A stretch of 50,052 nucleotides of DNA, from the IMG/VR virus record IMGVR_UViG_3300027521_000001, positions 1-50,052 of that record; one strand, 5' to 3'. The position numbers and the translations under genes are program-made. The stretch comes from a virus. The notes beneath the pieces were generated by a model, which was given only the letters and a program-made list of their open reading frames with translations, did no database searches and had not been told where the DNA came from. Positions 9,630 through 41,322 of the stretch are shown here, one piece after another (position 1 is the first letter of the stretch; every line of letters starts with the position of its first letter).

Positions 9630-9683
9630 CGCCGACACACAAGACGCTTTGAGCAGCGCGCCTCCGGTGCCACGCTTGCGCGC

Positions 9684-10982: not shown

Positions 10983-10991
10983 GAGACGCGC

Positions 10992-11399: not shown

Positions 11400-11415
11400 G
11401 GCTCCGGAGAACGCC

Positions 11416-16577: not shown

Positions 16578-19500
16578 ATGGCGGATGACGTTCTCCTTGG
16601 TTTCGTAGCCGAGACCAAGACCGCGCTCGAGCAAGTGCTCGCCATGGTCCGCGGCATGTCCGCGGGCCTGATCTCGCTCGGCGATCAGCATCCCGAAGTC
16701 GTCATCAACATCGCCAACGCGGCCGAGTCGCTGCGGACGCTTCAGGCCGACATCGAAGCCGTCCGCCGCGGCGAGCTTGACCTCAGCGGCCAGCCCCTCA
16801 CCATCAACACCGAGCAGGTGGCCGAGCGGCTGGACGCCGTTCTCGGGATGCTGCGGGGACTCAACGAGGAGTTCCTGCGGCTGCCGGACGTGGCGGCGGA
16901 GGCGAGCGCTGGCGTTACCGGCGCGGCTGATCGGATGGCAGAGAGCGAGCGCCTTGCGACCGAGGGCGCCGCGACTCTCCGCTCTGAGCTTGCCGGTGTC
17001 GCCAGGGAAGCGCAACTCGCAGGCGAAAAGGAAGAAGCTGCCTCGCGTCCCTTGGTTGACGGCGCGCGCCAAGCGCAGGCCGCCCTATCGGAGCTCTACC
17101 GGACCCTGTCCCGCGGAGCCATGTCGGTCGGACCGGAATTCGAACAGGCGGATCGCGCCATCGGCCGCTTCGCCGAGCTGCTGGCAAAGGCAAAGTCGGA
17201 AGGCTCACCGATCCCGCCGCAGCTACCAGGCCAACTCGCAAAGCTTCAGGGTGATCTTCTCGCCGTTGCGAACGACGCCCAGAAAGCCGGCGTTTCGCTC
17301 AAGAAGGCTGGCGAGGATGCGCATGCGGTCGGTGCGGCGGGAGAGAAGGCGAGCTCCGGAGGCATGTCGCTGTTGTCCCGCGCCTTCAACCGCATCGCCT
17401 TCAGCATCGAGTTGATGCTGGTCTACCAGGCCGCTCGGAAGATCTACGAGATCGGAGAGGCCGCTGCGGCTGCGGCCGAGAAGGGGCAGGCGCTCAAGAT
17501 CGCTCTTGAGTCTGCGGCAGGGGGCGCGCGAGAGGGAGCGGAAGCGGAAGCCTATCTCCGCGGCGAGGCGAAGCTTCTCGGCTTCGATGTCAACGCCGTG
17601 GCCGAGAGCTATGAGAAGTATGCGGCCACGGCCCGCGGCGCCAACGTAGCGCTCGACGAGCAGCGGGCGATCTCCTCCCGCCTGATGGAGACGGTGGCCT
17701 CGCTCCGCCTCGGAACCGGAGAGACCAACAAGGTTCTACAACTCTTCTCCGAGATCATCGACCGCGGTGCCGTCTCAACCGCCCAACTTCGCCGACGCCT
17801 GAGCGACGAGCTTCCTGGCGCGATGGCTTCCTTGCGGGCCGCCACCGGCCTGACAGAGACCGAGCTCGACAAGATGACGAAGGGCGGCCAGGTGGCCGCC
17901 AGTGCGCTCCTGCCCCTGATCACCAGGCTGGCAGAAGAAGTGGGCGGCGGCTATCACGATGCCCTCGTATCGGCCGGCGCCGAACAGGGGCGCCTTCGGA
18001 GCGAATGGGAGTTGGCGACGGCACAGGTCGGCGAGCGTTACCTGCCAGCGCTAGCCAACGCCATTGCCGAGCTGCGAACCTTCGTCGAAGAAAACAAGAG
18101 CGCTCGGGAAGTCGTCGGCGGCGCCCTCGGTGACCTAGCGAAGGGTGTGGAGGGAATCACCCACTGGTATCGAGAGTGGAGCGCTGAATCGGAGGTCGTG
18201 ACCCTGCGGCATCGCATCCTCCGTGACGAAGCTCGTGGCACGACAAAGGCGCTTGCGGATGCAAAGGTCGCGGCGACAGAACTCGAGGAAGCTGATCGCC
18301 GCCTCGCCGCAGCCACCCTCAGCGCTTCCGACAGGGCGGCCCAGCACGAAGCGGAGTTGCACCTCGAAGCACTTGCCGCAAGCGCCCTGATCCCGCAACT
18401 CACCTTGCAGATCGAGGCCCTTGAGAAGTCGGGGCGCTTTACTCGCGAAGAGGCCACCGCCGCCGTGGCTGCTGCTGACCAAAAAATCCTCGCCGCTCGC
18501 AATTTCAGCGAGGCTGATCGCCTCATGCTGAAGGATTTCCTCGACGGGCTTCAGCGAGCGTCCGATGGGCTGCGCCGTTTCACGGTCGATTTCACGAAAC
18601 AGCTCGGGGAGCAGATCGATGCCACGCGGCGCTATGCCCGCGACTTCCAGGATGAGCTACAGCGGACCGGTACCGTCTCGAAGGACGCCGCCGATCGCAT
18701 CGTCAAAGAAGTAACCGCCGAAGCGAAGAGTTTCAACCAGCTACCCGAAGCTCAGCGCAAGGCGCACGCCGAGTGGGGGACCGAGCTCGCTGCCATGCTG
18801 CGCGAGTTCCAGAGCTTCACTACCGCCTACGAGAAGGAGAACGCAAAACAGGTTAAGAGCGCCCAGCACACTGCCGCCGAAGAAGCGAAGGTGATGCACG
18901 AGCGCGAAACGGAAATGGAGAAGAGCATCCGCAAGATTGCGGAGCTGGGCTCGAAGCCGATCGACCGCGGCGCCGGCGCGGATGTGAAGGGGGCGCAGGA
19001 CCAGCTCGCCAAGGACAAGGCGGAGCTGGCGCAACTCAGCTCGAAGGCTACCCAGAGCGGCGCCGAGCTGGCCCGCATGGACGAGCTTCAGCAGGCGATC
19101 AACAAGGGCGGCGAAGCGGTCAAGCGCCTTCAGCAGCAGCAGCGCGATCAGGTGACCAGCGGCGAGGCTGGGAACAAAGCGCTGGCGCTCAGCTACGAGT
19201 CGGTCTATGGAAAGGTCCGCGACCTCATCACCGAGGACGACAAATTCAAGGCCGAGCTCGCTGGCCTGGGGCCTGAAGCGCAGTCAGCGTTTCAGCACGT
19301 GACGCAGGGGCTCCTCGACGCCGCGCAGGCCGGGACCGTCACTGAGGCCGACTTCCGCAAGTGGGGCTCCGATGTCGCCGGCATCTTTGTGCAGGCTGGT
19401 GTCGCGACCCAGGATTTCAAGCAGCGGCTCGAAGCCAACCTCTCGCCGCTCCGCACCGTGGCGCAGATGATGGACTCCCTCCGCGGCACGGCTGGGCAGA

Positions 19501-20534
19501 TCGCGCCTGCGATGACCGGAGCAGCATCGGCGACGAGCCAGGTTGCGGCCGCAGCTTCCCCCGCCGCCGCCGCGAGCCGCACCCTCTCTCTCGCGATGAA
19601 GGAACAGGCGGACGAAGCCGCCGCCGTTGCCGCTGCTGAGCGCGGCGCTGGTTTGGCGAGCGCTGACCTCGCCGGCAAGAGTCCCGCAGTGGTGGCCGCC
19701 TTCCAGGCCGCCGCCGCTGCGGCGAGAGCGCAGGCCTCCGGAGCCGATGCTGCGGGCGCAGCAAGCATCAGCGTCAGCAACAAGGAAGGCGAACTGATCG
19801 AGAAGACCCACGAGGCCGGCGACGCTTGGCACACCACGACGGAGCGCGTCCACGAGGGGACGGACGGCCTGATCCAGATCGGCGATGCGATGGTGAAGGC
19901 CGAGGGCGAGCAAGCCGCTTACAGCGAGGGCCTGAAGGTCGTCGAGGGGCATCTCGCAGACGGAACGGCCAAGTCGGTCATCTTCGGGACCAAGCTGCGC
20001 GACACCACGACCGCGACCAAGGACGCGACTGACAAGAGCGCCCTTCTCGCCACCGGCCTGAAGAACGAAGGGACGGCAGTCGAGCAGTTGAACGAGAAGC
20101 TACCGCAGCTCGTCTCGGCCCACCAACAGGCCGGCGCCGCGGCCGAGAGGAGCGCTGGCTCAGAACAGCGCGGCGCAACCGCGATGGGTCAATTGGCTGG
20201 CGCCGCGACCGCTGCCGCGCCTCCGGTTGAGAGCCTTGCCGCTTCCATGCAGAGGATCGCGGACGCGAACCCTGGCAGTGCGCTGGCGGCTGCGGCAGCT
20301 GCGGCCCGAGATCTCCTCACTTCTTCTCAGCCGCTCTCCGCAGAGCTGGACAAGGAAACGTTCTATGTGGACCACCTCGACTCCATTCTGCGCCGAGTCG
20401 TCGGTGCCTATGCGGCGGTGACTGTTGCGCGCGATGCCGACCGCGCGAGCATGGAAGCGTGGCGGGCAGAGGCGCGACTGGATGAGGAAGAGTGCAGGCT
20501 GCTCGCTACTTGCCTTGCGTCGGTGGCGGCATGA
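16578..20534 (+). CDS. Tail tape measure protein
   Basis: 1318 aa and Ala/Glu-rich alpha-helical. It contains the conserved tape-measure segment GAVSTAQLRRRLSDELPGAMASLRAATGLTETELDKMTKGGQVAASALL. Confidence 0.92.
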   Translation: MADDVLLGFVAETKTALEQVLAMVRGMSAGLISLGDQHPEVVINIANAAESLRTLQADIEAVRRGELDLSGQPLTINTEQVAERLDAVLGMLRGLNEEFLRLPDVAAEASAGVTGAADRMAESERLATEGAATLRSELAGVAREAQLAGEKEEAASRPLVDGARQAQAALSELYRTLSRGAMSVGPEFEQADRAIGRFAELLAKAKSEGSPIPPQLPGQLAKLQGDLLAVANDAQKAGVSLKKAGEDAHAVGAAGEKASSGGMSLLSRAFNRIAFSIELMLVYQAARKIYEIGEAAAAAAEKGQALKIALESAAGGAREGAEAEAYLRGEAKLLGFDVNAVAESYEKYAATARGANVALDEQRAISSRLMETVASLRLGTGETNKVLQLFSEIIDRGAVSTAQLRRRLSDELPGAMASLRAATGLTETELDKMTKGGQVAASALLPLITRLAEEVGGGYHDALVSAGAEQGRLRSEWELATAQVGERYLPALANAIAELRTFVEENKSAREVVGGALGDLAKGVEGITHWYREWSAESEVVTLRHRILRDEARGTTKALADAKVAATELEEADRRLAAATLSASDRAAQHEAELHLEALAASALIPQLTLQIEALEKSGRFTREEATAAVAAADQKILAARNFSEADRLMLKDFLDGLQRASDGLRRFTVDFTKQLGEQIDATRRYARDFQDELQRTGTVSKDAADRIVKEVTAEAKSFNQLPEAQRKAHAEWGTELAAMLREFQSFTTAYEKENAKQVKSAQHTAAEEAKVMHERETEMEKSIRKIAELGSKPIDRGAGADVKGAQDQLAKDKAELAQLSSKATQSGAELARMDELQQAINKGGEAVKRLQQQQRDQVTSGEAGNKALALSYESVYGKVRDLITEDDKFKAELAGLGPEAQSAFQHVTQGLLDAAQAGTVTEADFRKWGSDVAGIFVQAGVATQDFKQRLEANLSPLRTVAQMMDSLRGTAGQIAPAMTGAASATSQVAAAASPAAAASRTLSLAMKEQADEAAAVAAAERGAGLASADLAGKSPAVVAAFQAAAAAARAQASGADAAGAASISVSNKEGELIEKTHEAGDAWHTTTERVHEGTDGLIQIGDAMVKAEGEQAAYSEGLKVVEGHLADGTAKSVIFGTKLRDTTTATKDATDKSALLATGLKNEGTAVEQLNEKLPQLVSAHQQAGAAAERSAGSEQRGATAMGQLAGAATAAAPPVESLAASMQRIADANPGSALAAAAAAARDLLTSSQPLSAELDKETFYVDHLDSILRRVVGAYAAVTVARDADRASMEAWRAEARLDEEECRLLATCLASVAA

Positions 20535-21340: not shown

Positions 21341-22426
21341 GTGCGCTTCGCCGACAACATCCGGGACACCTCTGCGGCGCTCGACGAACTCACGCCGCGG
21401 TTGCAGACTCATGCGGATGCCCTGGACCGCGCCGCCGCTTCGCAACTCGCCCTCGGGCAGGCGACGGCAGACTCTCTCGACATGGTGACGCCCAAGGTGG
21501 CGGCGCTGGGGGATACGGCGGCCGCTGCGGCGGATCAGACTGCCGGTGGTGCGCCAGGCGGAGCGGCCGGCGTCGGTCCCACCGGTCAGCCGCCAGCGAA
21601 CGGAGGGCAAGCCGGCTACTGGTATCGCGACCCCGCCACGGGACAGGTCAGATGGGTGAGTACCTACGGCGTCGGCGCCCAGCCGATTGGCGGCGGCGGC
21701 GGCGCTGCTCCCGGAGGCGGTGCGCCCGCATCCGGCGGCGGAGTCAATCCGACCGGCCTGCCTCCGCCGAACCAGGGGCAAGCCGGTTACTGGTACCGCG
21801 ACCCACAGACCGGGCTTGAGCGCTGGATCAGCACTTACGGCGTCGGCGCGCAGTCAATCGGCGGTGGCGCGGCTGGCGGCGGGGGCGCAGGTCGCGGTGC
21901 CGGAGCGCCAGGGGGGGGTGGCGTCAACCCAACGGGCCTTCCCCCTCCGAACAAGGGCGAGGCTGGCTACTGGTGGCGAGACCCGCAAACGGGACAGGAA
22001 CGCTGGGTCAGTACCTACGGGGTGGGAGCCGCTGGAATCGGAGGGGGCGCTGGCGGCGGCGGCGCGGGGGGAAGCGTCAACCCGACAGGCCAACCCCCCG
22101 CGAACCAGGGGCAGGCCGGCTACTGGTACAGGGACCCGCAAACCGGGCAGACCCGATGGGTGAGCACCTACGGCGTCAACGCTCCCGAGATTGGCGGAGG
22201 AAGCGGAGGCGGCGGCAGGAGTGCGGGCCCTCCGGCGCCAGGCGGCGGCTCCGCGTCAGCAGCCCACAAGAAGGATGCATCCTCCGGTCCGACGCAGGGT
22301 GAGCGGCAGATAGTCGGGGCGGTCCAGGCGCTTCATGAGACGACGAAGAGCCTGCTTGCCACAGCCAAGAGCGGGCCGGCCGTCTCCTGGGATACGACCG
22401 CTCGAGCGATGGGGCTGGCGCGATGA
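21341..22426 (+). CDS. Protein with four ~40-aa conserved repeats at ~50-60-aa spacing (NPTGxPPxNxGxAGYWYRDPxTGxxRWVSTYGVGA)
   Basis: 361 aa with a GTG start. The four repeats are separated by poly-Gly linkers. The helical N- and C-terminal parts flank the array. Confidence 0.75.
   Translation: MRFADNIRDTSAALDELTPRLQTHADALDRAAASQLALGQATADSLDMVTPKVAALGDTAAAAADQTAGGAPGGAAGVGPTGQPPANGGQAGYWYRDPATGQVRWVSTYGVGAQPIGGGGGAAPGGGAPASGGGVNPTGLPPPNQGQAGYWYRDPQTGLERWISTYGVGAQSIGGGAAGGGGAGRGAGAPGGGGVNPTGLPPPNKGEAGYWWRDPQTGQERWVSTYGVGAAGIGGGAGGGGAGGSVNPTGQPPANQGQAGYWYRDPQTGQTRWVSTYGVNAPEIGGGSGGGGRSAGPPAPGGGSASAAHKKDASSGPTQGERQIVGAVQALHETTKSLLATAKSGPAVSWDTTARAMGLAR
21575..22201 (+). repeat. Four in-frame tandem repeats spaced about 150-180 nt apart
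   Basis: The core GYW(Y/W)RDPxTGxxRW(V/I)STYGV is conserved in all four copies (aa 79-287). Confidence 0.9.
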
Positions 22427-23279: not shown

Positions 23280-25622
23280 ATGCCCTCCGTCTCCTTCTTC
23301 ATCTCCGGCGCCTGCGTCAACCCGGATCCCCCAGCCACGGCGACCGGCTTCATCGACGGCGGCAGCGCGGAGATCACGGATCAGACGGCGGCCGAGATCA
23401 CCGGGGGCTGTGATGCGAGCCTGACCCAGGGGGCGATACCGCTCGCCAGCTCCTTCCAGGAGTGCGCGATAGAGGCGTTCGTTGGCGGCCGGCCCGTGCC
23501 GCTGGATCAGCTCGTCGGCAAGATCGAGGTGGATACCCAGGTCGAGCGGCTGCTGAACACCTGGACCTTCACCACGGCGGTGACCGCGCCCGATGGCGTC
23601 TTCGGCAACCCCCTGGACAGGGTGGGGCCGCCTACGGGGCTGCTCGACGTCGACCTGTACGCCACCTACCGGGTGAACGGCCAGGTGGTGCGCTACCCGC
23701 TGATGCTGCACGGCGTGGCGACTCTGAGCAAGCGGATCGCGGAGCTCAGCGCCGGAACCAAGGTCGGCTGGACGGAACAGCTCGAAGGGCTGGACCGCGG
23801 CGGCCGGTTCGACGGGATGCCGGGGACGCTGGTCATCCCCGAGGGCAGCATGCTCCCGCGAGAGCAGGTGGCGGAGCGCCTGATCGGCTCGGCCAAGGAC
23901 GCCAGCAGCCCCCCCGACTTGGAGTTTCACTTCGAGGCTTCGCAGACGAAGGTCAAGAAGTATGTCCCGCTGGTGGACGGGGATCCCTGGCAGCTCTCGC
24001 AGGAAATGTTCGCCACCGAGGGGCGCCGGCTCCTCCGCGATGTCGAGGGCTTCAACTGGAATCCGCGCCTTGGCCTTCAGAAGAACGGCGCCGCCGTCCC
24101 CGTCTTCATGATCGACGAGCGGCTGATTCTCTGCTTGCAGACCTTCGAGATGGACGGGCCGCCCGGAAAGGTCCCGACCTCGGTGACGCTGACCGGGACC
24201 GAGCAACTGGTCAGCCCCCCGACCGTCGCGCCGGCCTACAAGGTGGTGACCTCGCAGCAGATCGAATATGCGGTCTACCAGCCCAAGGCGGCCGAGTACA
24301 TCCAGAACCTCAGCGGCTGCACGCTCTCCTTCCTTGGCATCTCGATCAACGATCCGCGCCTGATCCCGGTCAAGCTGGTGGTGACGACGCTGGAATACCT
24401 GGGTGGCACGCTGGTGACGCAGGCGGTCGAGACCTACGCTTACGTCTGGCCCGAGGCGGCGCGCTACAAGTGGGACGAGACGACGCACGCCCTGGTCTGT
24501 CAGCAGAACGTCTTTCTGCCGCCAGGCGCGGCGCCGGGACCGACCGACCAGACGGGAGCCTATGCGACCCGCGGCGAGGAGTGGCTACTGCAGAGCCGCG
24601 TGCGGACGCAGAAGTTTTACGATGCCATCGGCTACACCGGGCAGGATGGACTCCCGACCGATCCTTGGTTCCAGGCCTTCCACGGGACGGCAGGCGGCAG
24701 CTTCGCGGGGACCGGCTTCTACCTCGGGTCGATCGCCACAACCGAGGAGTGGTACACCCGGCGCCATGCCTGGAAGCAAGAAAGCGGGACGACACCCTGG
24801 CAGTCGATCGACCCGCTGGACGGCGTTCTCGTCCGTGGCAGCGGGGAGGCGGTCGAGGACGCACAGGCGCTCTTCACCGTCACCAAGCAAGTCGTGGAGG
24901 TCCAGCACGCGGACGCCTCGGGGACCTTGCAGTCGATCGCCACGTTCAACTACGGCTTCGGGCTCTACCAGGGCGGCGAGTTTCAGTTCCAGGCGAACAA
25001 CGGGCAGACGAGCTCGCAGGAGCTGGAGACCTTTGAGCTGGTCGGAGGGACCGATACCGTCTACATCCCGCTCAGCGAGACGAGCGGCTATCAGGAGATT
25101 CAGAGCGCGTACACCTTCGATGGATCCTCGAACACGGTGGGCGATCCAAAGGTCTCGATCGGCCCAGGTATCCCGCCGGCGATCGAGCAGCTGCCCAACC
25201 TTCAGCCCGACCTCAACGCCTTCCCGGGCGCACAGATGGCGGACCCCAACCAGACGCAGCCGATTAAGGTCGAGGTCAAGGTGCCGGCGCTCCTCGCGAC
25301 TCACCCGCCCTACAAGATCAAGACGAGCCTGCCATGGGCGGAGACGATGCAGGAGCTGGGGGACGCCGGGCTGTATCTCATCGAGCAGGCGGCGGCGGCC
25401 AAGTGCACCTTCACCACGCCGCTCCTCGGGATGCTTCAGGCGGGGTACTGGGTGATCCTGATCGAGCGGCCCTTCGGCATCAACGCCTTGGGGCAGATCA
25501 CGGCGGTCAAGCATTGGAGCAACGGGACACTCGCGGACCCCTACTTGAGCACGTTCACGGTCTCGATCTACCCGGTTATCGGGTCGGTCGAGGTGCCCGA
25601 GACGGGGACGACACCGCCATGA
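23280..25622 (+). CDS. Large tail protein (tail-tip / Tal-like by position)
   Basis: 780 aa from an internal ATG (MPSVSFFISG...) of track ORF 23184..25622. The upstream 32 codons are Arg-rich. Confidence 0.75.
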   Translation: MPSVSFFISGACVNPDPPATATGFIDGGSAEITDQTAAEITGGCDASLTQGAIPLASSFQECAIEAFVGGRPVPLDQLVGKIEVDTQVERLLNTWTFTTAVTAPDGVFGNPLDRVGPPTGLLDVDLYATYRVNGQVVRYPLMLHGVATLSKRIAELSAGTKVGWTEQLEGLDRGGRFDGMPGTLVIPEGSMLPREQVAERLIGSAKDASSPPDLEFHFEASQTKVKKYVPLVDGDPWQLSQEMFATEGRRLLRDVEGFNWNPRLGLQKNGAAVPVFMIDERLILCLQTFEMDGPPGKVPTSVTLTGTEQLVSPPTVAPAYKVVTSQQIEYAVYQPKAAEYIQNLSGCTLSFLGISINDPRLIPVKLVVTTLEYLGGTLVTQAVETYAYVWPEAARYKWDETTHALVCQQNVFLPPGAAPGPTDQTGAYATRGEEWLLQSRVRTQKFYDAIGYTGQDGLPTDPWFQAFHGTAGGSFAGTGFYLGSIATTEEWYTRRHAWKQESGTTPWQSIDPLDGVLVRGSGEAVEDAQALFTVTKQVVEVQHADASGTLQSIATFNYGFGLYQGGEFQFQANNGQTSSQELETFELVGGTDTVYIPLSETSGYQEIQSAYTFDGSSNTVGDPKVSIGPGIPPAIEQLPNLQPDLNAFPGAQMADPNQTQPIKVEVKVPALLATHPPYKIKTSLPWAETMQELGDAGLYLIEQAAAAKCTFTTPLLGMLQAGYWVILIERPFGINALGQITAVKHWSNGTLADPYLSTFTVSIYPVIGSVEVPETGTTPP

Positions 25623-25636
25623 GGGTGATTATCCGC

Positions 25637-25666
25637 TTGACGCGGCCCATGGCGAACGCATATGCT
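25637..25666 (+). promoter_or_regulatory. Sigma70-like promoter TTGACG-18 nt-TATGCT inside the tail module
   Basis: -35 at 25637-42 and -10 at 25661-66. The ATG at 25674 starts 7 nt after the -10. Confidence 0.45.
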
Positions 25667-25673
25667 TTGCCTT

Positions 25674-25943
25674 ATGGAAGAGGCAATGGCGGAGCATGGG
25701 TGTCTAAGCTGCGGCGATCCTATCGAGATCCTGGCGGGACACAAGCGGCGCATCTTCTGCCCAGGGTGCACTCGGATGCGGATGTACCTTACCGCCGCAG
25801 AGAAGGAGATCGGACTCCTCAGTTTCAGGCACGCGACCGGCCGGCAGCGGACGGAGCTTCGGCGCTGGCTGTTCGAGGTCACCAACCGCATCCCCCCCGA
25901 TTCCATCCGCGGAGATGGCGGCAGGTTCGCAAAGCGGCCATGA
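25674..25943 (+). CDS. Zinc-ribbon-like small protein (CLSCG...CPGC)
   Basis: Protein-like frame of track ORF 25662..25943. The start was chosen as the ATG 7 nt after the -10; 25662 and 25686 are alternatives. An ATGA overlap links it to the methyltransferase. Confidence 0.6.
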   Translation: MEEAMAEHGCLSCGDPIEILAGHKRRIFCPGCTRMRMYLTAAEKEIGLLSFRHATGRQRTELRRWLFEVTNRIPPDSIRGDGGRFAKRP

Positions 25944-26743
25944 GCGGACTCGTCCTTTCCCTCTTCCCTGGAATCGGCCTGCTTGACATGGCCTTCGAGG
26001 AGGCTGGCTTCTGCGTTGTGCGCGGTCCCGATGTCCTGTGGGGCGGCGATGTTCGCCGCTTCCATCCGCCGCCGGATCGCTTCGATGGCGTGATCGGCGG
26101 ACCACCCTGTCAGACCTTCTCCTCGCTCGCGAACCTAGTCAGGGCGCGCGGTTACGAACCGCGCTTCGGCAACCTGATCCCCGAGTTCGAGCGCTGCATC
26201 GCGGAGGCGCGGCCGCGATGGTTCCTGATGGAGAATGTGCGCCAGGCTCCGGAGGCCGCTATCGCCGGCTACGCGGTCAAGTCCTTCCTGCTCGCCAACG
26301 AGGAGCTGGGCGAAGAGCAGGAGCGGCAGCGCCGGTTCAGCTTCGGGGTGCGAGGCGCAGCGGAGGCGCCCAACCTGCGGCGCTGGATTCAGCCGGCGGC
26401 GCTGATGCTGCCCGCTCGATCAAGGACCATGACGCAGTTCCCGACCGACAATAGCGATAAGGCAAAGGGAGAGGCGGCGCGGTATCGCCAGCGCGCGGTG
26501 ACTTCCTCGGATGGCGGCCGCAACCATGGGCGCGTCCGCCTCCCCGAAGCTATCCGTCTTCAGGGCTTGCCGCCGGACTTTCTGGCCGACTCACCACTGA
26601 CCAATCAAGGCAAGATGAAGGCGGTGGCGAACGGGGTGCCGCTGCCCATGGGACGCGCGGTGGCGGCTGCGGTCCTCGCAGCGCTCGTGCGGCTTGACGC
26701 TCAGCGCTCAGCCACCGATCCTCTTCGGTGGGCCGTCCAATGA
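25940..26743 (+). CDS. DNA (cytosine-5)-methyltransferase, compact (267 aa)
   Basis: The motifs appear in order: LFPGIG (I), GGPPCQ (IV), ENV (VI), QRRFSF (VIII), ANGVPLP (X). It uses an internal ATG of track ORF 25334..26743. Confidence 0.9.
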   Translation: MSGLVLSLFPGIGLLDMAFEEAGFCVVRGPDVLWGGDVRRFHPPPDRFDGVIGGPPCQTFSSLANLVRARGYEPRFGNLIPEFERCIAEARPRWFLMENVRQAPEAAIAGYAVKSFLLANEELGEEQERQRRFSFGVRGAAEAPNLRRWIQPAALMLPARSRTMTQFPTDNSDKAKGEAARYRQRAVTSSDGGRNHGRVRLPEAIRLQGLPPDFLADSPLTNQGKMKAVANGVPLPMGRAVAAAVLAALVRLDAQRSATDPLRWAVQ

Positions 26744-27045
26744 CCGCCTTCCTCGAGCCCCGAGAGGGCGTGCTGATCGCGCGGGCCGGGGAGGAGATCG
26801 TGTGCCCGGAGTGTAGAGAGGTGCTTGCGACTCACAGGCAGGACTTCCTTGCCAACGAGGGGGCAATCTTTGGCGAGGCCCTCACCTTTTCGTCGACGGC
26901 CCGCCACACCCTCTTGCCCGGCGGCGATCTTGAGCTTTTCTGTGACTGCGGGGGCATTCCATTTCGGAGCAATCGCTCGCGCACCGCGGTTCAGCACTTC
27001 ATCCGTTCCGGCTCCTGGAGCGGCTGGCGAGGGCTTGGAGAGTAG
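26740..27045 (+). CDS. Cys-containing small protein (CPEC...CDCGG)
   Basis: ATGA overlap with the methyltransferase stop. 101 aa. Confidence 0.55.
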   Translation: MTAFLEPREGVLIARAGEEIVCPECREVLATHRQDFLANEGAIFGEALTFSSTARHTLLPGGDLELFCDCGGIPFRSNRSRTAVQHFIRSGSWSGWRGLGE

Positions 27046-28317
27046 ATGGCCTCTCGGGACTCTTCGCCAGGACAGGGCTTCTACCTCAATCTCCTGGGGA
27101 AGTCCTCGCTCCCCGCCGTCCTCGCCGGCTTCGCGCAGCAGACCGCGGACCTCCGCAACCAGGTCGTCATCATCGGGCCGGCAGAAGTCCCTGGTTGGTT
27201 CTTTGTCCGGAACCTTTGCTCAGACCAGGCCTATCGCGTCCAGTCCTTGAACGGAGTCAACTATGCTCCCGGCACTATGGTCATCCTCGGCAACCAGGGC
27301 AGCGGCAAGGGAGGCCCTGAGTTTATCATCGGCAGCGTCGGTCAGGCCGGTGGCTCCGAGGTCTCCGTCTCGACCAGCGTCACCTTCGGGACGTTCCCTG
27401 TCGTGACGCCCCCCCCCGCCACGCCTCCCTGTGCGATCCAGATCCCGAACCATCGCTATCTCGGGATCATCCGAGCCAACAGTGACAACACGCTGTATCC
27501 CTACGGCTACCTGGACGGCACCATCGGCGCCCTGCTCGGGCCGTCGTGGAACCCTGGAACGAGCGATTCCTTGGTCGCCGGCTTTCCCGCGATCCGCATC
27601 CATCCGCGAGATCTCGTCGTCCTCCAAGTCCAGGCGATCGGACTCGGCCCCCCCTACCACTTCCAGATCGCCACCTGGGATATCGCGGCTGGGACGCAGG
27701 CCGTCCTCGACACCGGCATTGTCTACGGCGGCTCGCTGACGGCGCCCGTTGCCTCGCAGCTTGCATGGCGCCCCGGCACGAACGAACTCCATTTCATCAT
27801 CTGGACCTTCGACCTTCCAAGTGACAGCTACTTCGGCCAGGTCTACAGAACTGCGGTTGGTGCATCAGGAAGCGGTGGCGCCACCGCTCTCGGAACGCCG
27901 TTTCAGCAGTCCTTCGGGCTGGTGACATGGCCTCCCACGATCTGCGGGAACGTCCTCGCGGTGGCCGGTGGCCGCTTCGATCTCGGTACGCATCTTTGGA
28001 CCGCAGCGCCGGCGGACAACATTGGGGGCGGCGGCGCTTCCTTCAACTCGGACGGAAGTCTAGCCTGCGCCTGGTGCAACCCGCAGGGGGGAAATTTGAG
28101 CGCGGGAGCAGCCTCCGCTGACGGCACGGCCGTCATCCAGTATTTCCCGGACTTTGGGGGCGGACCCTCTCATCCCTCCTACTTCCTGCGAGTGATCCCG
28201 CCGGCGCGATTCGGTACGGGGCTGATCCCTCCCTGCCCGCCGGTCTCAGTCTCGGGAACGCTGGTGCAGCAGGATGGCGCCGGAGATCCGCCAGTGGCGT
28301 TCCTGGCGAGAGATTGA
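27046..28317 (+). CDS. Tail-associated protein, unknown function
   Basis: 423-aa, Gly/Pro-rich beta-type sequence. The ATG directly follows the upstream stop. Confidence 0.7.
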   Translation: MASRDSSPGQGFYLNLLGKSSLPAVLAGFAQQTADLRNQVVIIGPAEVPGWFFVRNLCSDQAYRVQSLNGVNYAPGTMVILGNQGSGKGGPEFIIGSVGQAGGSEVSVSTSVTFGTFPVVTPPPATPPCAIQIPNHRYLGIIRANSDNTLYPYGYLDGTIGALLGPSWNPGTSDSLVAGFPAIRIHPRDLVVLQVQAIGLGPPYHFQIATWDIAAGTQAVLDTGIVYGGSLTAPVASQLAWRPGTNELHFIIWTFDLPSDSYFGQVYRTAVGASGSGGATALGTPFQQSFGLVTWPPTICGNVLAVAGGRFDLGTHLWTAAPADNIGGGGASFNSDGSLACAWCNPQGGNLSAGAASADGTAVIQYFPDFGGGPSHPSYFLRVIPPARFGTGLIPPCPPVSVSGTLVQQDGAGDPPVAFLARD

Positions 28318-28327
28318 GAGTAGACTG

Positions 28328-29638
28328 ATGCCAGTGCGACAGGCGACCATCATCCAGGGCGATGCGCTGGCGGTCCTGCGGGCGATGCCGGCGGGGAGCG
28401 TCCACTGCTGCGTTTCGAGCCCGCCATACTGGGGACTCCGCGACTACGGCGTGCCGGGACAGCTCGGGCTCGAACGCTCGCCGGCCGAGTACCTGGACCG
28501 CATGGTCGAGATCTTCGCCGAAATGCGCCGCGTCCTCCGCGACGACGGGACGCTATGGGTGAACATGGGCGACTGCTACGCGAGCGGCAACCGCGGCGGT
28601 TACCACGCGGATGAAGCGCGATGGGAAAGGAGCCCGATGCAGGCGCGCCGCGCCGATCGCGGAGGGTCTGGAATCCCTGGCTCTCCCAACAGGCTTCCGC
28701 AAGTCGGCCTAAAGTCGAAGGACCTGATCGGCATGCCCTGGCGCCTCGCCTTCGCCCTGCAAGACGCCGGCTGGTGGCTGCGCCGGGACATCATCTGGGC
28801 GAAGCCGAACCCGATGCCGGAGAGCGTCACGGACCGGCCGACGACGGCGCACGAGTACGTCTTCCTGCTGTCGAAGTCGGAGCGGTACTTTTACGACGCG
28901 GAGGCCGTGAGGGAACCTGCGATCTACGCCGAACCGAATGCTTCCGACTCCATCGCGTCACCTTACGGCCAAGGCTTCACGCGCCGCGCCAATCCAGGGA
29001 ACCGCAAGGCGTTCCGCGGTGGTGGCGCCTACACTGCAGGCAACAGCTTCGACAACAGCGCCACAAAGGAGAACGCGGTCGGAGGCAATGACGGGATCCC
29101 GAATCTCTCCCGCAATCTCCGCTCCGTCTGGACCATCCCGACCTCGCCGTTTCGTGAAGCTCACTTCGCAACTTTCCCTCCCGAGCTGGCACGCCGCTGC
29201 ATCGCTGCCGGGACCTCAGAGCGCGGCTGCTGCTCGGAGTGCGGGGCGCCGTGGAAGCGCGAGGTGTCGATCGACTACGAGAACCCCGGCAACCGCTCGA
29301 CCAACGGGCCGCGCTCGGAGGAGCGGAAGCACCAGGAGCACGGCAGCGCTGGCTACGCGCAGCGGCTTGAGCGGCGCGCGTCGACGTCGGGATGGCTGTC
29401 GACCTGCGGCCATGTCGCGGAGATCGCGCCCTGCACCGTCCTCGATCCCTTCTCCGGCGCCGGCACCACGGCCATGGTCGCGCTCCGCATGGGCCGGCGC
29501 GCAATCGGGATAGAACTGAAGCCGGAGTATTGCGAGATGGCGGCGCGGCGGATCGAGAGGGATGCGCCCCTGCTGAACCGGGTTGAACTCGCCAGCTTCA
29601 GCGAGCCGCGCTGCATCCGCGGAGGCGCAGCGGCATGA
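28328..29638 (+). CDS. DNA methyltransferase, N4-cytosine/N6-adenine family (beta class)
   Basis: SSPPYW (motif IV) precedes DPFSGAGTT (motif I). It also carries the segments RDIIWAKPNPMPES and FATFPPELARRCI, and an inserted CCSECG segment. Confidence 0.9.
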   Translation: MPVRQATIIQGDALAVLRAMPAGSVHCCVSSPPYWGLRDYGVPGQLGLERSPAEYLDRMVEIFAEMRRVLRDDGTLWVNMGDCYASGNRGGYHADEARWERSPMQARRADRGGSGIPGSPNRLPQVGLKSKDLIGMPWRLAFALQDAGWWLRRDIIWAKPNPMPESVTDRPTTAHEYVFLLSKSERYFYDAEAVREPAIYAEPNASDSIASPYGQGFTRRANPGNRKAFRGGGAYTAGNSFDNSATKENAVGGNDGIPNLSRNLRSVWTIPTSPFREAHFATFPPELARRCIAAGTSERGCCSECGAPWKREVSIDYENPGNRSTNGPRSEERKHQEHGSAGYAQRLERRASTSGWLSTCGHVAEIAPCTVLDPFSGAGTTAMVALRMGRRAIGIELKPEYCEMAARRIERDAPLLNRVELASFSEPRCIRGGAAA

Positions 29639-29856
29639 GCCAGACGGACTTGCCGGTCATCTCCGCCGCACGGCTTATCATCAAGGAGACCCTCACGCAG
29701 GCCGCTCCTTGTTTCTATTGCGGTTGCCAAAGCTTTGAGCGCACTCTCGGCGAGCCAATCCCAGACTGGCTCCGGCGCCAGCTTCATCCCGAAAACCCGC
29801 TGCTCCAACCGCTTACGTGGCGTTGCGTGTGCTGCGGCAGTGCGAGGGCAGCATAG
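29635..29856 (+). CDS. Cys-rich small protein (CFYCGC...CVCCG)
   Basis: 73 aa with an ATGA overlap to the methyltransferase stop. Confidence 0.6.
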   Translation: MSQTDLPVISAARLIIKETLTQAAPCFYCGCQSFERTLGEPIPDWLRRQLHPENPLLQPLTWRCVCCGSARAA

Positions 29857-31398
29857 ATGTCGGTCGCCAAGTGCAGCGTCCTCGCCCCCGGCGCGACCGG
29901 TCCGCTTGGCGGAGTCTCCTTCGGGACCACGACGACGGGTTTCACGAGCGCCACCGTCCAGGCCGAGATCTGGAACCAGAAGGGCGACCCGACCGCGGAC
30001 ACCGCGCGCGAGGTGCAGCTCATCGCTCTGGTGAAGACGAGCGCCGACGCTTCCTTCGAGCTGACTTCGCCGCCGATCGCGAACGGCTACTTGGAGTGCA
30101 GGGTAACCGGCATCGCTGCCGGCGGCACTGGCACTCCCACGCCTCAGGTCACTGGCTGGCAGAAGATCCGCCCCGGGCGTCCGTGCCTGCTCGACCCGAT
30201 CCCTGGTGATTCCGGAAGGACGGTCGAGTTCCGCCAGGTCGTTCCCGCCGGCCAGAACACGGATGCGTGGACCTGGAACTTTTCGCTGCGATGGGCCGAG
30301 CCGACCTCGCCCATCCCCGCCGGCCTCTGGGCGAGCGGCAACCGGGGCGTGTTCTCGCGGACTGGCGACGGTGCCGCTTCCTTCCTGATCTCGGGAGGCG
30401 CCGTCACCCCGAGCGGTACGCCGGACGCCGACGTCCATCTCGCGGATCTCGCCTGGCGCTTCCAGGGCGTGCCGCATGTCGCCCTTCAGCAGGTCATCGC
30501 CTTCGACCAGCACGACGGAGCTGCCGTGCTCCTCACCGCCGGCCAAGGCTACTGGGCGACCCTCAGCGCCGGCGCAGGCCCCGGCCTGACCGTTACCAAG
30601 GGGCTGGCGGCCACAGCGCCTGTGCCTATCACCGGGCGTGTGCCGCAGCCAGCCGGAGAGAGTTTCGTCGCCTTCGTCCAGGTGACCAGCGCCGCGGCGA
30701 TCGGCAGCGGGGACATCGACCAGACCCTGACCACCTGGGGCGGCTGGCTGCTCTACGGGCAGAACCTGCTCGCGGCCAAGCTCGGCTCCGGCTCCGGCAT
30801 CGCTGGCGACTCGATCGACCTGACCGAGAGTGCCGTCTCGCTGACCTTCCCGGACGCGACCGCAGACGTGCGGGTGTACAAGATCCAGGCGAACCCCGAC
30901 CTGGTGATCCAGCCGCCGCCGGCTCCGGATCCGCAGGCGCTCGAGCTGTGGCGCTGCACGACGGCAGGCGGGGCGATCACGGTCGCGAGGGACGTGCGCC
31001 GCTTCATCGGCCCTGACCGGCAGAAGCACGTCTTCCACTTCGGCGCCGCGCTGGTGGTGAACGCCGCGGTCTACCTCACGCTGCCTGGGCCTGGCGACCG
31101 CGCGGTCTGCCTGCCCTTCCCGGTGCTGGCGAGCTGCGATCCGGTGAGCGGCGGAAGCGGCTCCAACGTCTTCGAGCTCGAGTACTGGAACGGCTCGGCC
31201 TGGGTGACTCTCTTCACCAGCTCGGGCACCCAGGACCGGCGGCCGACGCTCGCGGGCGCTGGCCCCTTCGTCTCGGAGGCCGCGCTCCCCGAAGTCTTAG
31301 TGCTGCCCGGCTGGACCCAGCTCCGGGCGCGCGTGACCGCCATCAGCACTCCGGCGCCTACGGGCGCGGTGATCGAACTCGCCACCGAGGCGGCATGA
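29857..31398 (+). CDS. Tail-associated protein, unknown function
   Basis: 513-aa beta-rich sequence, the last large gene of the late operon. Confidence 0.7.
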   Translation: MSVAKCSVLAPGATGPLGGVSFGTTTTGFTSATVQAEIWNQKGDPTADTAREVQLIALVKTSADASFELTSPPIANGYLECRVTGIAAGGTGTPTPQVTGWQKIRPGRPCLLDPIPGDSGRTVEFRQVVPAGQNTDAWTWNFSLRWAEPTSPIPAGLWASGNRGVFSRTGDGAASFLISGGAVTPSGTPDADVHLADLAWRFQGVPHVALQQVIAFDQHDGAAVLLTAGQGYWATLSAGAGPGLTVTKGLAATAPVPITGRVPQPAGESFVAFVQVTSAAAIGSGDIDQTLTTWGGWLLYGQNLLAAKLGSGSGIAGDSIDLTESAVSLTFPDATADVRVYKIQANPDLVIQPPPAPDPQALELWRCTTAGGAITVARDVRRFIGPDRQKHVFHFGAALVVNAAVYLTLPGPGDRAVCLPFPVLASCDPVSGGSGSNVFELEYWNGSAWVTLFTSSGTQDRRPTLAGAGPFVSEAALPEVLVLPGWTQLRARVTAISTPAPTGAVIELATEAA

Positions 31399-37927: not shown

Positions 37928-38101
37928 ATGAAGCACGGCGGCTGTTTCGTCTGCAAGTCCACCTCTCAAACCATTCTCAGCAGCGGCATGCCGCGAGAGA
38001 GCGTCGTCGCCGGCCAGAAGGTCATGCAGGGAGCCGGCATCGCGGTCTGCGCTGACCCCGAGTGCCGGCGCCTCGTGGAGTTTGCGCGTGCCTCTCTCTG
38101 A
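37928..38101 (+). CDS. Small Cys protein (CFVC...C..PEC)
   Basis: Internal ATG of track ORF 37814..38101, with AAGGAGA 7 nt upstream. Confidence 0.5.
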   Translation: MKHGGCFVCKSTSQTILSSGMPRESVVAGQKVMQGAGIAVCADPECRRLVEFARASL

Positions 38102-39023
38102 GCAGCAAGCCGCCGCGCGCGCAAATGCCATCGGCGCCTCCGAGGTCGCGGCTCTCTTCAACTGCCATCCGCACCTCTCCCGCTTCGAGCTGTGGCACCG
38201 CAAGGCCGGGAATCTGCCGGAGGCGCAGGGCGGCAAGTGGGCGCCCTGGGGCGATCTCCTTGAGCCCGTCATCGCCAAAGCCATCGCCCGCGAGCAGGGA
38301 TGGGCCGTGCGAAAGGTGCGCCGCTACTGTCCGCATCCCTGGCTGATCGGTATGGGCTGCTCGCCCGACTTCGAGGTGAGCGAGAGCCAAGCCGTGCCGG
38401 CGTTCTCCGGCCTGCTGGAGATCAAGAACGTCGACCGCATGGTCTATCACCGCTGGCCGGATGGCGCGGCGCCGCTGCACTTCGAGCTTCAGGTGCAGCA
38501 TCAGCTCGCCTGCCTGCCGCGGCGCACCTGGGCGGCGCTCGGCGTTCTCGTCGGCGGCAACACGCCGCTCGTGCTGACCTACCATCGCCACGCCGGCGCC
38601 ATCAAGCGCATCGAGATCGAGGTCTCGCGCTTCTGGCAGAGCGTCCAGGCCGGCACCGCGCCAGAGCCCGACTTCGAGCGCGACTATCTCACGGTCGCGC
38701 AGCTCTACGGGACGGCGACGGAGGGGAGCATCCGCGACTTCCGCGGTGACAAGCAGCTCGCTGCGCTGTGCGCCGACTACGCGCAGGCGCAGCTCGACGA
38801 GAAGGCGACGAAAGCGAAGAAGGGCGCGGCCAAGGCGCGGATCTTGGAGCACATCCGCGACACCGAGACCGCGATCACCGATGGATTCAAAGTCTGCGCC
38901 TCCGAGGTGCCCGGCGGACCAGTCGCGGCCAGCGAGCGCGCAGGCTATCGCAGCTTCAGGGTGTTGACCCTTAGGGGAGTGGAGTATGGCAACGGAACCG
39001 ACGCAACCGAGAACGGCAGTTGA
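38082..39023 (+). CDS. YqaJ-like viral recombinase exonuclease
   Basis: IGASEVAAL...LW..K.G...LEP...LEIK...QVQHQL matches the YqaJ/lambda-Exo-type PD-(D/E)XK signature. It sits next to RecT. The TTG/GTG start is uncertain. Confidence 0.85.
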   Translation: MRVPLSEQQAAARANAIGASEVAALFNCHPHLSRFELWHRKAGNLPEAQGGKWAPWGDLLEPVIAKAIAREQGWAVRKVRRYCPHPWLIGMGCSPDFEVSESQAVPAFSGLLEIKNVDRMVYHRWPDGAAPLHFELQVQHQLACLPRRTWAALGVLVGGNTPLVLTYHRHAGAIKRIEIEVSRFWQSVQAGTAPEPDFERDYLTVAQLYGTATEGSIRDFRGDKQLAALCADYAQAQLDEKATKAKKGAAKARILEHIRDTETAITDGFKVCASEVPGGPVAASERAGYRSFRVLTLRGVEYGNGTDATENGS

Positions 39024-40158
39024 AGGGCGAGCTCTCGCCATCCGAGCGCAGGCCGATTCCGTGCGGGCGGTCCTGACGACGCCGGCGATGACGCAGCAGC
39101 TCCGCGCTGCTCTGCCGCGGCACCTCACACCCGAGCGCCTGGTGCGGCTGGTGATGACATCGGTGCAGCAGTCTCCGAAGCTCTTGGAGTGCGACCGGCA
39201 GAGCCTCTTCGCCGCGATCATGACCTGCGCGCAGCTTGGCCTAGAGCCGATTCTCGGCCGCGCCTACCTGGTGCCGTTCCGCGACAAGGTGCAGTTCATC
39301 GCGGGTTATAAGGGCCTGATCGACCTCGCCGTCAACAGCGGTGAAGTGACCAAGGTTTTTGCCAACATCGTCTATGCCGCGGATGAATTCGAGTACGAGT
39401 ACGGCGTCAACGAGAGGCTCTTTCACAAGCCGAGCGAGGCCGAGGACCGCGGCGAGATCACCCACGTCTACGCGCTCGCGTGGTTCAAGCGCGGCGGCCC
39501 TCCCTACTTCGAGGTGATGCTGCGGCGTGAGGTCGATGCGATCCGCGACAGGAGCCAGGGATGGCAGGCGTACAAGGCGGCGAAGATCAAAGAGAACCCA
39601 TGGCACACCGACTATCCGCAGATGGCCCGCAAGACCGGGATCCGGCGGATCTCTAACTATCTGCCGCTCGACGTCCAGAAGGCCATCGCCCTTTCGGATG
39701 CTCACGATCTCGGGCGCCATGGACACATCGACGCGCAGGGAGACCTGGTGATCGAGCAGCTTCCGGCGATCGACGGCAGCGCACCGCAGCCGGCGCCGCT
39801 GACCAGGCTCGACGCCTTCGCGGCGGAGGGCGATGCGCCGCCGGAAGAGCCTTTCGAGTTGTCCATGGACGACCTCCTAGAGAAGGCCGGCGCGTTACTG
39901 GCCGTACTCCCGAGCCAGAAGGCGAAGAAGGACGCGATGGCCGCGGCTTTCGAGGTTTCCACTTGGAAGGAAGCCCAGGCCCTCCCGCGCGAAAAGCTCG
40001 AGCACGGCCTCGCGCTCCTTCAGCGGGCGCGCCAAGAGAGCGATGACCAGGCGGAAGCGCACCGGCAGGCCATGGCCCAGAACGAGGAGAAGGCCGGCGT
40101 GCCGCGCGGGATCTCGCCGCAGGAACCGGCGCCGGGGAGTCAGGGGAGCTTGCTATGA
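38986..40158 (+). CDS. recT: RecT-family single-strand annealing protein with an acidic C-terminal extension
   Basis: SLFAAIMTCAQLGLEPILGRAYLVPF...IAGYKGLIDLA...W.TDYPQMARKT is typical of RecT. Confidence 0.88.
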   Translation: MATEPTQPRTAVEGRALAIRAQADSVRAVLTTPAMTQQLRAALPRHLTPERLVRLVMTSVQQSPKLLECDRQSLFAAIMTCAQLGLEPILGRAYLVPFRDKVQFIAGYKGLIDLAVNSGEVTKVFANIVYAADEFEYEYGVNERLFHKPSEAEDRGEITHVYALAWFKRGGPPYFEVMLRREVDAIRDRSQGWQAYKAAKIKENPWHTDYPQMARKTGIRRISNYLPLDVQKAIALSDAHDLGRHGHIDAQGDLVIEQLPAIDGSAPQPAPLTRLDAFAAEGDAPPEEPFELSMDDLLEKAGALLAVLPSQKAKKDAMAAAFEVSTWKEAQALPREKLEHGLALLQRARQESDDQAEAHRQAMAQNEEKAGVPRGISPQEPAPGSQGSLL

Positions 40159-40725: not shown

Positions 40726-41177
40726 CCCCCGCCGCCTTCTTCGCTCGCTGCCGGCGCGATCCGAAGACGGGCTGTCTCATCTACTGCGGCGCGCGCTGTG
40801 GGGGGGGGTACGGCGAGGTCCGGCATCCAGGCGGTCGGCGAGAGGTCGCGCATCGCTTCGCCTGGAAGCTCGCCGGCCGCAGGATCACCAAGAAGCGGCC
40901 CGAACTCCGGCATACCTGCGACTGCCGCCCCTGCGTCGAGCTGGGCCATCTCCGCGCCGGGACCCACGCGCAGAACATGGCGGACATGGCCCGCAAGCGC
41001 CGCGGCAGGCGTTCCCGCCGGCGCCTCCCGCCTGGCGTCCAGCCCAACCGCGGCGACGGCTCCGGGAAGGGCTACCAGGCGCGGGTGAGCCTTGGCGGGC
41101 GACGGCTCCATCTCGGGACGTTCCCCTCGATCGCGGAGGCCCTGGCGGCGGTTGACGGGGCGCTCGGGAGGGCGTAG
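40722..41177 (+). CDS. HNH endonuclease with a C-terminal AP2-like domain
   Basis: GYGEV...AHRFAW...RHTCDCRPCVELGHLRAGTHAQN is HNH_3-type, and GYQARVSLGGRRLHLGTFPSIAEA is AP2-like. An alternative TTG start lies at 40683. Confidence 0.8.
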   Translation: MTPAAFFARCRRDPKTGCLIYCGARCGGGYGEVRHPGGRREVAHRFAWKLAGRRITKKRPELRHTCDCRPCVELGHLRAGTHAQNMADMARKRRGRRSRRRLPPGVQPNRGDGSGKGYQARVSLGGRRLHLGTFPSIAEALAAVDGALGRA

Positions 41178-41180
41178 AAT
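41152..41180 (+). promoter_or_regulatory. Sigma70-like promoter TTGACG-17 nt-TAGAAT
   Basis: It overlaps the HNH stop codon. About 135 nt separate it from the first usable start (GTG 41323) of the replication gene. Confidence 0.5.
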
Positions 41181-41322
41181 CAGGGTAAGTTTCGATGTAC
41201 CGGAGGAGGCCGCCAGCACCCCGGACAAGGCTTTCCTTCCGCTCCCTGGCGTCGGTCGCAGCCTGGCGGCCTCCCGGCCGGCACGGGGAGCGGGGTTTTC
41301 AGCGGTCCTGTCAGAAAGGCGG

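Follow-up and report, generated by a model that had tools for sequence, protein, structure and literature searches.

We analyzed a 50,052-nucleotide (nt) stretch of viral DNA (positions 1 to 50,052 of IMG/VR virus record IMGVR_UViG_3300027521_000001; hereafter the window) and found that a region carrying two DNA methyltransferase (MTase) genes is probably an accessory DNA-modification island with two fixed, exchangeable cargo slots, situated in the distal late (probable tail) operon of a soil phage of roughly 50 kb. Its eight genes lie on the + strand, and we refer to them in their order: A, a large gene at the left boundary; B, encoding a zinc-ribbon protein; the slot 1 cargo, a compact C5-cytosine MTase (C5-MTase); D, encoding a second small cysteine protein; E, a fiber-like gene; F, the slot 2 cargo, a beta-class MTase; G, a cysteine-rich open reading frame (ORF); and H, the right boundary. 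Slot 1 lies between B and D, and slot 2 between E and H. An earlier reading of the window from its letters alone (the original prediction) had listed ORFs, both MTases, overlaps of stop and start codons, and a TTGACG-18-TATGCT site upstream. All eight ORFs, the MTases, the overlaps (ATGA), and the site were found where it had placed them.

Gene content of the two slots in related phages

Protein searches and contig look-ups yielded nine related metagenomic loci (Table 1). Direct contig searches with E, or with an alignment of H, gave no hits in viral, metagenome, or genome contigs, and one with A gave none in viral contigs. B and D were found to persist with slot 1 empty, with slot 1 holding a MarR-like gene, or with slot 1 holding any of three unrelated C5-MTase lineages, namely, that of the window, a 207-amino-acid (aa) C5-like enzyme in L035, L046, and L037 (PF00145, 31.5 and 29.5 bits; phrog_363, 2.9e-32), and a third lineage in L036, whose N-terminal part matched PF00145 (1.2e-26) and whose C-terminal part matched phrog_1008. 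These three are only ~27 to 32% identical to one another, and only within the catalytic core. In L033, the B gene has a hybrid C terminus (ending PPSA and stop), and its last codons, TCC GCA TGA, also close the cargo genes of L035, L037, and L040. The slot, although "empty," therefore looks like a deletion scar.

Table 1. Gene order at the island in the window and in related loci
Locus	Genes in order	Identity to window proteins	Remarks
Window	A, B, C5-MTase (267 aa), D, E, F, G, H
L033	A, B, D, E, Dam-like PF02086 MTase, H	A 93%, B 54%, D 51%, E 68%, H 91%	No C5-MTase, no G
L040/L041	A, B, 86-aa MarR-like gene, D	A ~86%
L037	A, B, 207-aa C5-like MTase, D, 62-aa zinc-finger gene, E, two MTase fragments, HNH/NUMOD4, H	A 82%, H 78%
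L034	E, F, H	F 68%
L035/L046	A, B, 207-aa C5-like MTase, D, E, F, H	A 58%, F 61%, H 55%
L036	A, B, third C5-MTase lineage, D, E, F, H		Two changes of reading frame
L039	A, B, 79-aa chimera, HNH gene, E		Chimera of the 207-aa C5-like MTase (N terminus) and D (C terminus)
L038	A, E, H only	A 45%, H 51%

Slot 2 showed a comparable variety. The beta-class MTase position was kept in five relatives, being intact in L034, L035, L036, and L046 and decayed in L037, while L033 had the Dam-like enzyme there and L038 had nothing. Where intact in L034, L035, and L036, F was 61 to 77% identical to that of the window. When phages were compared pair by pair, its identity (66 to 77%) exceeded the values for A, E, and H, and it may be either a long-standing resident of slot 2 or a gene that moves between lineages. 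Taken across these syntenic relatives, the MTases appear as presence/absence and replacement polymorphisms.

The DNA flanking slot 1 was unusually alike among the relatives. Identity reached 90 to 100% over the final ~40 nt of B and the opening ~50 nt of D, compared with ~60 to 70% elsewhere and ~57% for the structural proteins. When only codons for identical residues were compared, third-position identity was 0.77 to 0.81 in the flanks and 0.60 to 0.66 in A, F, and H, and the last 41 nt of B were conserved at synonymous sites. This conservation fits an exchange of cargo by homologous recombination in the flanks.

The C5-MTase gene of L036 (4350-5594) overlaps the stop of B and the start of D with two ends that share a frame, whereas its middle, with WPTPxAxD repeats and the phrog_1008 match, is in another. 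Two compensating frame changes are implied, and the gene is either a pseudogene or the product of an assembly error. The HNH gene of L039 (1037-1561), which has a weak, below-cut-off match to HNH_3, and the homing-endonuclease gene of L037 (4145-4741), which has NUMOD4 and HNH_3 domains, both lie in or next to the slots and adjoin decayed MTase remnants.

The two MTases

The slot 1 enzyme is a compact C5-MTase, as originally described, and matched the PF00145 family. Its core motifs I (FPGIG, residue 9), IV (PPCQ, 56), VI (ENV, 98), VIII (QERQRRF, 127; QRRFSF), and X (ANGVP, 230) were found by pattern, and an IX-like RLPEAIRLQGLP was noticed by eye only, the regular expression for this motif giving no match. 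Its nearest solved relative is M.HaeIII (6.5e-15). It has the same catalytic motifs I, IV (PCQ), VI (ENV), VIII, and X as M.HaeIII-type enzymes, but it is only 267 aa long, with a short target-recognition region, and belongs to a phage-borne subfamily. Members of this family were found in 30 other viral contigs at 40 to 55% identity (weakest, 28%), and the identical protein was present on eight contigs. A hidden Markov model search of the 30 contigs found neither B nor D anywhere, and their C5-MTases had no consistent cysteine-rich neighbor, the flanking ORFs being heterogeneous.

The slot 2 enzyme was likewise confirmed as a beta-class MTase with SPPY (residue 31) preceding FSGAGTT (375), and its start at 28328 was favored by homologues over one at 28274. 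Its relatives in the PDB are TTHA0409 and CcrM. It shares with beta-class MTases (PF01555; TTHA0409, CcrM, M.PvuII) the placement of motif IV before motif I, as well as strong family matches, but differs from them in a long cysteine-rich insertion between the motifs and in having a relative with SFPY. SPPY is the usual form of the motif in N4-cytosine enzymes and suggests that the product of F is N4-methylcytosine.

The two enzymes are of different chemistry, consistent with the original prediction, and restriction-enzyme models gave zero matches to any neighbor of either; both seem to be ordinary orphan phage enzymes. A blastn search against GenBank phages had as its sole match the conserved core of the beta-class MTase, at ~65 to 70% identity.

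B and its likeness to Mu Com

The B protein was predicted to consist of an N-terminal zinc finger (CxxC-x15-CxxC), two helices, and an invariant C-terminal tail, IPPDSIRGxGGRFAKRP. It was found at 40 to 73% identity in L033, L035, L036, L037, L039, L040, and L041. The whole family comprises five clusters only, all within the phage's own lineage, and always follows A. An alternative ATG (25662) falls inside the −10 hexamer of the upstream promoter-like site. The predicted model of B had a mean predicted local distance difference test (pLDDT) score of 65, with residues 73 to 85 below 50 and probably disordered, and a Foldseek search with this low-confidence model returned no structural match. 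Among the non-MTase proteins of the island, B alone gave hits in the family searches, two zinc-motif hits far below the cut-off.

Phage Mu has a com-mom operon in which Com, a 62-aa zinc-finger protein of the CCCC type, activates mom translation and com overlaps mom. In FluMu and Pnm1, two prophages resembling Mu, and in a related island, com was kept while mom was replaced at the same position by unrelated N6-adenine MTases (PMC3299994). The cysteines of B (C6, C9, C25, and C28) lie almost exactly where those of Mu Com do (C6, C9, C26, and C29). An hhalign comparison of the B family with Mu Com gave a P value of 8.4e-4 and a probability of 24% over 41 columns from residue 1, with the four cysteines in register, although zinc knuckles align easily; three other zinc-ribbon controls gave P values of 0.01 to 0.04 over 8 to 12 columns. 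The Pfam Com family, however, matched neither B, D, nor any of their homologues at E values up to 10. The B stop overlaps the start of the cargo (ATGA or GTGA) in all relatives, whichever cargo follows. Single-sequence RNA folding at both slot 1 junctions in six to seven relatives found no shared hairpin.

Within the conserved 3′-terminal part of B (25897-25943, and the equivalent positions of the relatives) lies CCGCGGAG, which fits the RNA motif CC(N)2-3GAG reported for Mu Com binding (PMC6483171). The match may be coincidental, since the conserved IRG residues are encoded there too.

D and its wider family

D belongs to a wider family, for which 1.84 billion representatives yielded 13 clusters (50% identity) and which is marked in the alignment by invariant GE..CP.C, C.CG, and a C-terminal (FI)RSGSWxGWRxLGE. 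Its predicted model is all-beta (pLDDT, 76.5; predicted template modeling score, 0.67). Foldseek searches of the PDB and BFVD with this model found no match below an E value of 0.9; the low-scoring, nonsignificant hits included RIG-I RD, Mis18 Yippee, and MsrB, proteins in which zinc is held by two distant CxxC pairs. The model of D appears to be built in this manner as well.

Outside the phage's own lineage, D-family genes directly precede DNA-modification genes in L042, where 2 nt separate the D-family gene from one for a 730-aa C5-MTase, and in L044/L045, where a Mom-family gene (PF25680, 29.6 bits versus a cut-off of 27.1; L045, 1033-1416; L044, 1575-1829) starts in overlap with the D-family stop, in a cluster that also has a fragment of an N6_N4 MTase two genes further upstream, DUF1937, and a UDG-like gene. 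In L048/L049 and L043, the gene immediately downstream of the D-family gene is not a recognized modification gene, and tblastn of the whole loci L047, L048, L049, and L043 found no MTase homologue. D is hence linked to modification genes in three of six independent contexts, which is suggestive, not decisive. In L047, the D-family gene is directly followed by a gene (6331-7299) for a 322-aa protein that has no Pfam match and contains CPVNCWFC, a radical-SAM-like CxxxCxxC motif.

G and the junction with H

The cysteine-rich ORF beside F fared differently from B and D. No tblastn match to G was found in any relative, and in L034, L035, and L036 the H start directly overlaps the F stop, leaving no G beside F. 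In the window, G starts at that very overlap and runs in the H frame to a single TAG. This lineage-specific ORF may be a small gene of recent origin or the scar of a recombination event, it may extend H by read-through, or it may be a chance ORF. Conservation of the small cysteine ORFs beside the MTases, on which the original prediction depended, holds for B and D, which bracket the C5-MTase position in the relatives, but not for G.

Promoter-like site and late-operon setting

A promoter scan over 14 kb found two sites, one per strand, both in the gap between A and B, compared with 0.9 ± 1.1 in shuffled sequences. The + strand site was retained as TTGAC(G/T)-18-TAT(G/C)CT in L033, L035, and L036, and with TTGACA in L037, that is, in four of five relatives, at a flanking protein identity of only ~57%. 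In L038, which lacks B and D, the A and E genes overlap, and hence there is no equivalent gap. Judging from this distribution, the site, a putative promoter, belongs to the MTase island. Of the claim that the MTases have an internal promoter of their own, it is this conservation that stands. The minus-strand match, TCGCCA-16-GATAAT (25628-25655), shares the same gap.

The window nearly equals the entire 50,094-bp metagenomic contig (ENA ERZ27314107), with a G+C content of 67%. A + strand gene run extends from the tape measure gene onward as far as 32439, and the recombination and replication genes follow; from this layout of late versus recombination and replication genes, the MTase region therefore lies near the end of the late operon. 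Coding in every stated frame of the region was backed by the third-codon-position G+C content (GC3), which is 0.76 to 0.78 for B, the C5-MTase, D, and E but higher for A (0.89) and H (0.88). The B/C5-MTase, C5-MTase/D, and F/G junctions are ATGA overlaps; D and E abut, as do G and H, and the gap between E and F is 10 nt. The first + strand terminator-like site is at 31754, none being present at 25.6 to 31.4 kb.

None of the proteins A, B, D, E, G, and H could be assigned to an informative family by searching Pfam, PHROGs, NCBIfam, and PADLOC, and A, E, and H had no sequence match in the PDB either. E accordingly showed no homology to a known tail fiber in these searches. In alignments, its N-terminal ~120 residues are conserved and the rest is divergent, the usual pattern of receptor-binding fibers. 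E lies downstream of the tape measure gene, is the most variable large structural gene of the block, and is present in L038 without any MTase. The original placement of the MTases among distal tail genes is supported in that they lie downstream of the tape measure gene in the late operon; A, E, and H are assigned to the tail by position.

Proposed working of the island

In the island reading, the orphan anti-restriction MTases occupy a probable hot spot of recombination within the late operon. Their genes would share the transcription of that operon, perhaps with a contribution from the internal promoter, and translation of the island genes may be coupled through the ATGA overlaps. The MTases would methylate progeny DNA before packaging, allowing it to survive restriction in the next host. 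Cargo could be swapped or lost by recombination in conserved flanks, namely, the terminal ~40 nt of B, the initial ~50 nt of D, a short linker that follows E, and the beginning of H, possibly assisted by the phage's own YqaJ/RecT module for short-homology recombination. Anti-restriction specificity and E, the most variable structural gene, would then be inherited as one block, with B and D acting as framework genes of the island, not as subunits of a particular MTase.

Several points weigh against this reading. The comparison covers nine related loci, several of them short contigs. A, E, and H are presumed to have a tail role from their position downstream of the tape measure gene alone. The raised identity of the flanks could instead come from overlapping translation signals or from protein constraint, and the direction of change, gain or loss, was inferred from deletion scars. 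F is more conserved than its structural neighbors and could be a stable core function instead of cargo. In the F gene of L035 (3732-5060, the same as 7663-8991 of L046), SFPY replaces SPPY, and the activity of this enzyme may be altered. By itself, the promoter-like site is nonsignificant in the window, and the sigma-70-like consensus may not be that of the host. Moreover, no terminator closes the cassette, which is not a textbook moron.

Weighing the explanations

The original prediction had proposed that each MTase is functionally paired with its cysteine-rich neighbors. A dedicated partner, in which each small protein provides specificity, targeting, or structure to the adjoining MTase, is quite unlikely. 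B and D do flank a C5-MTase with stop/start overlaps in the window, L035/L046, L037, and L036, and D co-occurs with a nearby MTase in all informative loci of the lineage and is absent from the MTase-free L038. However, the three C5-MTases found between B and D are unrelated outside the catalytic core, the slot is sometimes empty or filled with a non-MTase gene, members of the 267-aa family occur in 30 phages that have neither B nor D, and G, having no homologue, is missing beside F in three relatives. In addition, C5 and beta-class MTases of these families act as single polypeptides. The pairing therefore had to be abandoned in its strong form. A weaker form is plausible, given that B resembles Com in cysteine spacing and gene position and that D-family genes occur upstream of Mom-family and C5-MTase genes.

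That weaker form would refine the island reading: B, D, or both could be transcriptional or posttranscriptional activators that allow the coupled downstream modification gene to be translated only late in infection. We regard this as possible but doubtful. The likeliest role for B and D, though equally tentative, would be to control how a modification gene that may be toxic is expressed, as Com does in Mu. The CxxC-x15-CPxC spacing of B is near that of Com, the hhalign score was stronger than those of the three controls, the tail of B is of low confidence and probably disordered as in Com, and one source labels a B homologue "predicted RNA-binding Zn-ribbon protein." The overlap of the B stop with the start of every cargo type would suit such a role, as would the synonymous conservation of the last 41 nt of B, which fits a cis-acting RNA site before the cargo start. 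There is also the direct placement of D-family genes before the Mom-family gene of L044/L045 and the 730-aa C5-MTase gene of L042, and the precedent of com being kept while the downstream modification gene was swapped (PMC3299994). Yet no member of either family matches Pfam Com, an hhalign probability of 24% is low for zinc knuckles, which align easily, and neither junction has a conserved RNA hairpin. B and D also remain where slot 1 is empty or MarR-like, the D of the phage's own lineage precedes the fiber-like E instead of an MTase, and the D-family genes of L047, L048, L049, and L043 are followed by no recognized modification gene, in loci without an MTase homologue by tblastn.

A role for B and D in tail assembly or as minor structural proteins, with the MTases having landed at permissive junctions of the tail operon, is unlikely. 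The confinement of B to the lineage and its constant place after A would agree with it, as would the abutment of D and E in all cases and the joint divergence of the variable middle of D and the variable body of E. D-family genes, however, also occur in nontail contexts, beside replication, terminase, Mom-family, and C5-MTase genes, and a purely structural role for D is therefore unlikely; L038 has the A-E-H module without B or D, and the arrival of three independent C5 lineages at exactly one junction is hard to explain by chance. Chance ORFs were rejected for both B and D, which are conserved in relatives. It is extremely improbable that the MTases are part of restriction-modification systems with E or H as the cognate endonuclease. 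A large protein of unknown function does follow each MTase, but E and H occur in L038 with no MTase, the H of L033 is 91% identical beside an MTase of a different (Dam-like) class, E varies while F is conserved, and no restriction-enzyme model matches E or H; this explanation was rejected from the comparison with relatives.

The island reading, then, is the one we carry forward. The original prediction had named, as evidence against itself, independent morons without promoter activity, and the presence/absence and replacement pattern of the MTases goes most of the way toward this; a promoter-like site is nonetheless conserved.

Comparison with known systems

The layout of the island recalls that of Mu, where the mom operon is located at the end of the late region beside the tail-fiber genes. 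In Mu com-mom and its variants (FluMu hin1523, Pnm1 nma1821, and hia5), the modification gene is near tail-fiber genes, as in the window, and its start is overlapped by a preceding small gene for a four-cysteine zinc finger, as is the case for B. The small gene is kept while the modification gene is replaced, as in slot 1 (PMC3299994), and the purpose, protection against restriction, is the one we propose for the island. The differences are that membership in the Com family could not be detected for B or D, that the overlap is 80 nt in Mu and 4 nt here, that the window has two slots and two framework genes, and that its cargoes are C5 and beta-class MTases instead of Mom or N6-adenine enzymes. 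The window island is also placed inside a probable tail run (A, E, and H), whereas that of Mu comes after it.

Phage morons of the Hendrix type and orphan anti-restriction MTases are an established class for comparison. Like morons, the MTases of the window are present or absent among syntenic relatives (L038 has A, E, and H only, and L033 lacks the C5-MTase) and are inserted between late structural genes with a promoter-like site upstream and a slightly different codon composition. Unlike morons, they have no terminator in the region, and their overlaps suggest translational coupling to their neighbors; moreover, the lineage re-uses two junctions for many unrelated cargoes with conserved framework genes. 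Lambdoid phages exchange modules at conserved linker sequences, and the window resembles them in the short conserved DNA flanking the exchangeable segments and in having a RecT-type recombinase. Here, however, the linkers are the ends of coding genes, and recombination at them is inferred.

Orphan anti-restriction MTase cargo is of an already known kind, and its placement is a Mu-like solution, with a modification gene near fiber genes and behind a small zinc-finger gene, here elaborated into two re-used slots. What is new is the B-slot-D frame, the replacement series, and the recurrent place of the D family upstream of Mom-family and C5-MTase genes. If the island reading is true, the lineage keeps re-usable anti-restriction slots beside its most variable structural gene, and one recombination event could change adsorption specificity and restriction evasion together. 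B and D would be candidate controllers of toxic DNA-modification genes, extending the com-mom logic, if true, beyond Mu-like phages, and the MTases are candidates for new 5-methylcytosine and N4-methylcytosine specificities from high-G+C soil phages. A bolder possibility, fairly unlikely in our estimate, is that B, along with the D family as a whole, represents new zinc-binding regulators, nonhomologous to Com, that gate exchangeable modification genes (C5-MTases and Mom-family enzymes), with B-slot-D serving as a docking site for swapping anti-restriction enzymes together with a receptor-binding gene as a host-range cassette.

Coordinates and neighboring genes

The features of the island and the other landmarks of the window are collected in Table 2.

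Table 2. Positions of island genes and other features in the window
Feature	Position	Strand	Description and support
A (A780)	23280..25622	+	780 aa; left boundary of variable region; gene call; 45-93% identical in relatives
Sigma-70-like site	25637..25666	+	TTGACG-18-TATGCT; −35 at 25637-25642, −10 at 25661-25666; in 63-nt A-B gap
B (B85)	25686..25943	+	85 aa; zinc ribbon; two CxxC pairs; start backed by homologues and ribosome-binding site GGAAGAGG
Slot 1 cargo	25940..26743	+	267 aa; compact C5-cytosine MTase; PF00145, 74.4 bits versus cut-off of 22, E = 1.5e-20
D (D101)	26740..27045	+	101 aa; predicted all-beta zinc-binding protein; CPEC and CDC
E (E423)	27046..28317	+	423 aa; fiber-like, between slots; 30-68% identical to relatives
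F, slot 2 cargo	28328..29638	+	436 aa; beta-class N4-cytosine/N6-adenine MTase; PF01555, 150.2 bits, E = 1.1e-43; phrog_67, 1.3e-75
G (G73)	29635..29856	+	73 aa; cysteine-rich; GC3 0.72; in frame with H, single TAG between
H (H513)	29857..31398	+	513 aa; bounds slot 2 on the right; 51-91% identity across seven relatives
Portal, protease, and major head genes	within 7249-12414
Tape measure gene	16578-20534		1318 aa; phrog_2335 match
YqaJ-like exonuclease and RecT recombinase genes	38082-40158		PF09588, 4.5e-19; PF03837, 2.9e-44
DnaD-like helicase-loader (replication) gene	41092-42201
Terminase gene	48266-49921

Two further genes of the window were of interest. A 361-aa protein encoded after the tape measure gene (21341-22426) has internal repeats, with offset tblastn self-hits of up to 68% identity over residues 78 to 173. 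Just upstream of the terminase gene, a 214-aa protein (47064-47708) matched phrog_513, annotated as a transposase, at 6.6e-53.

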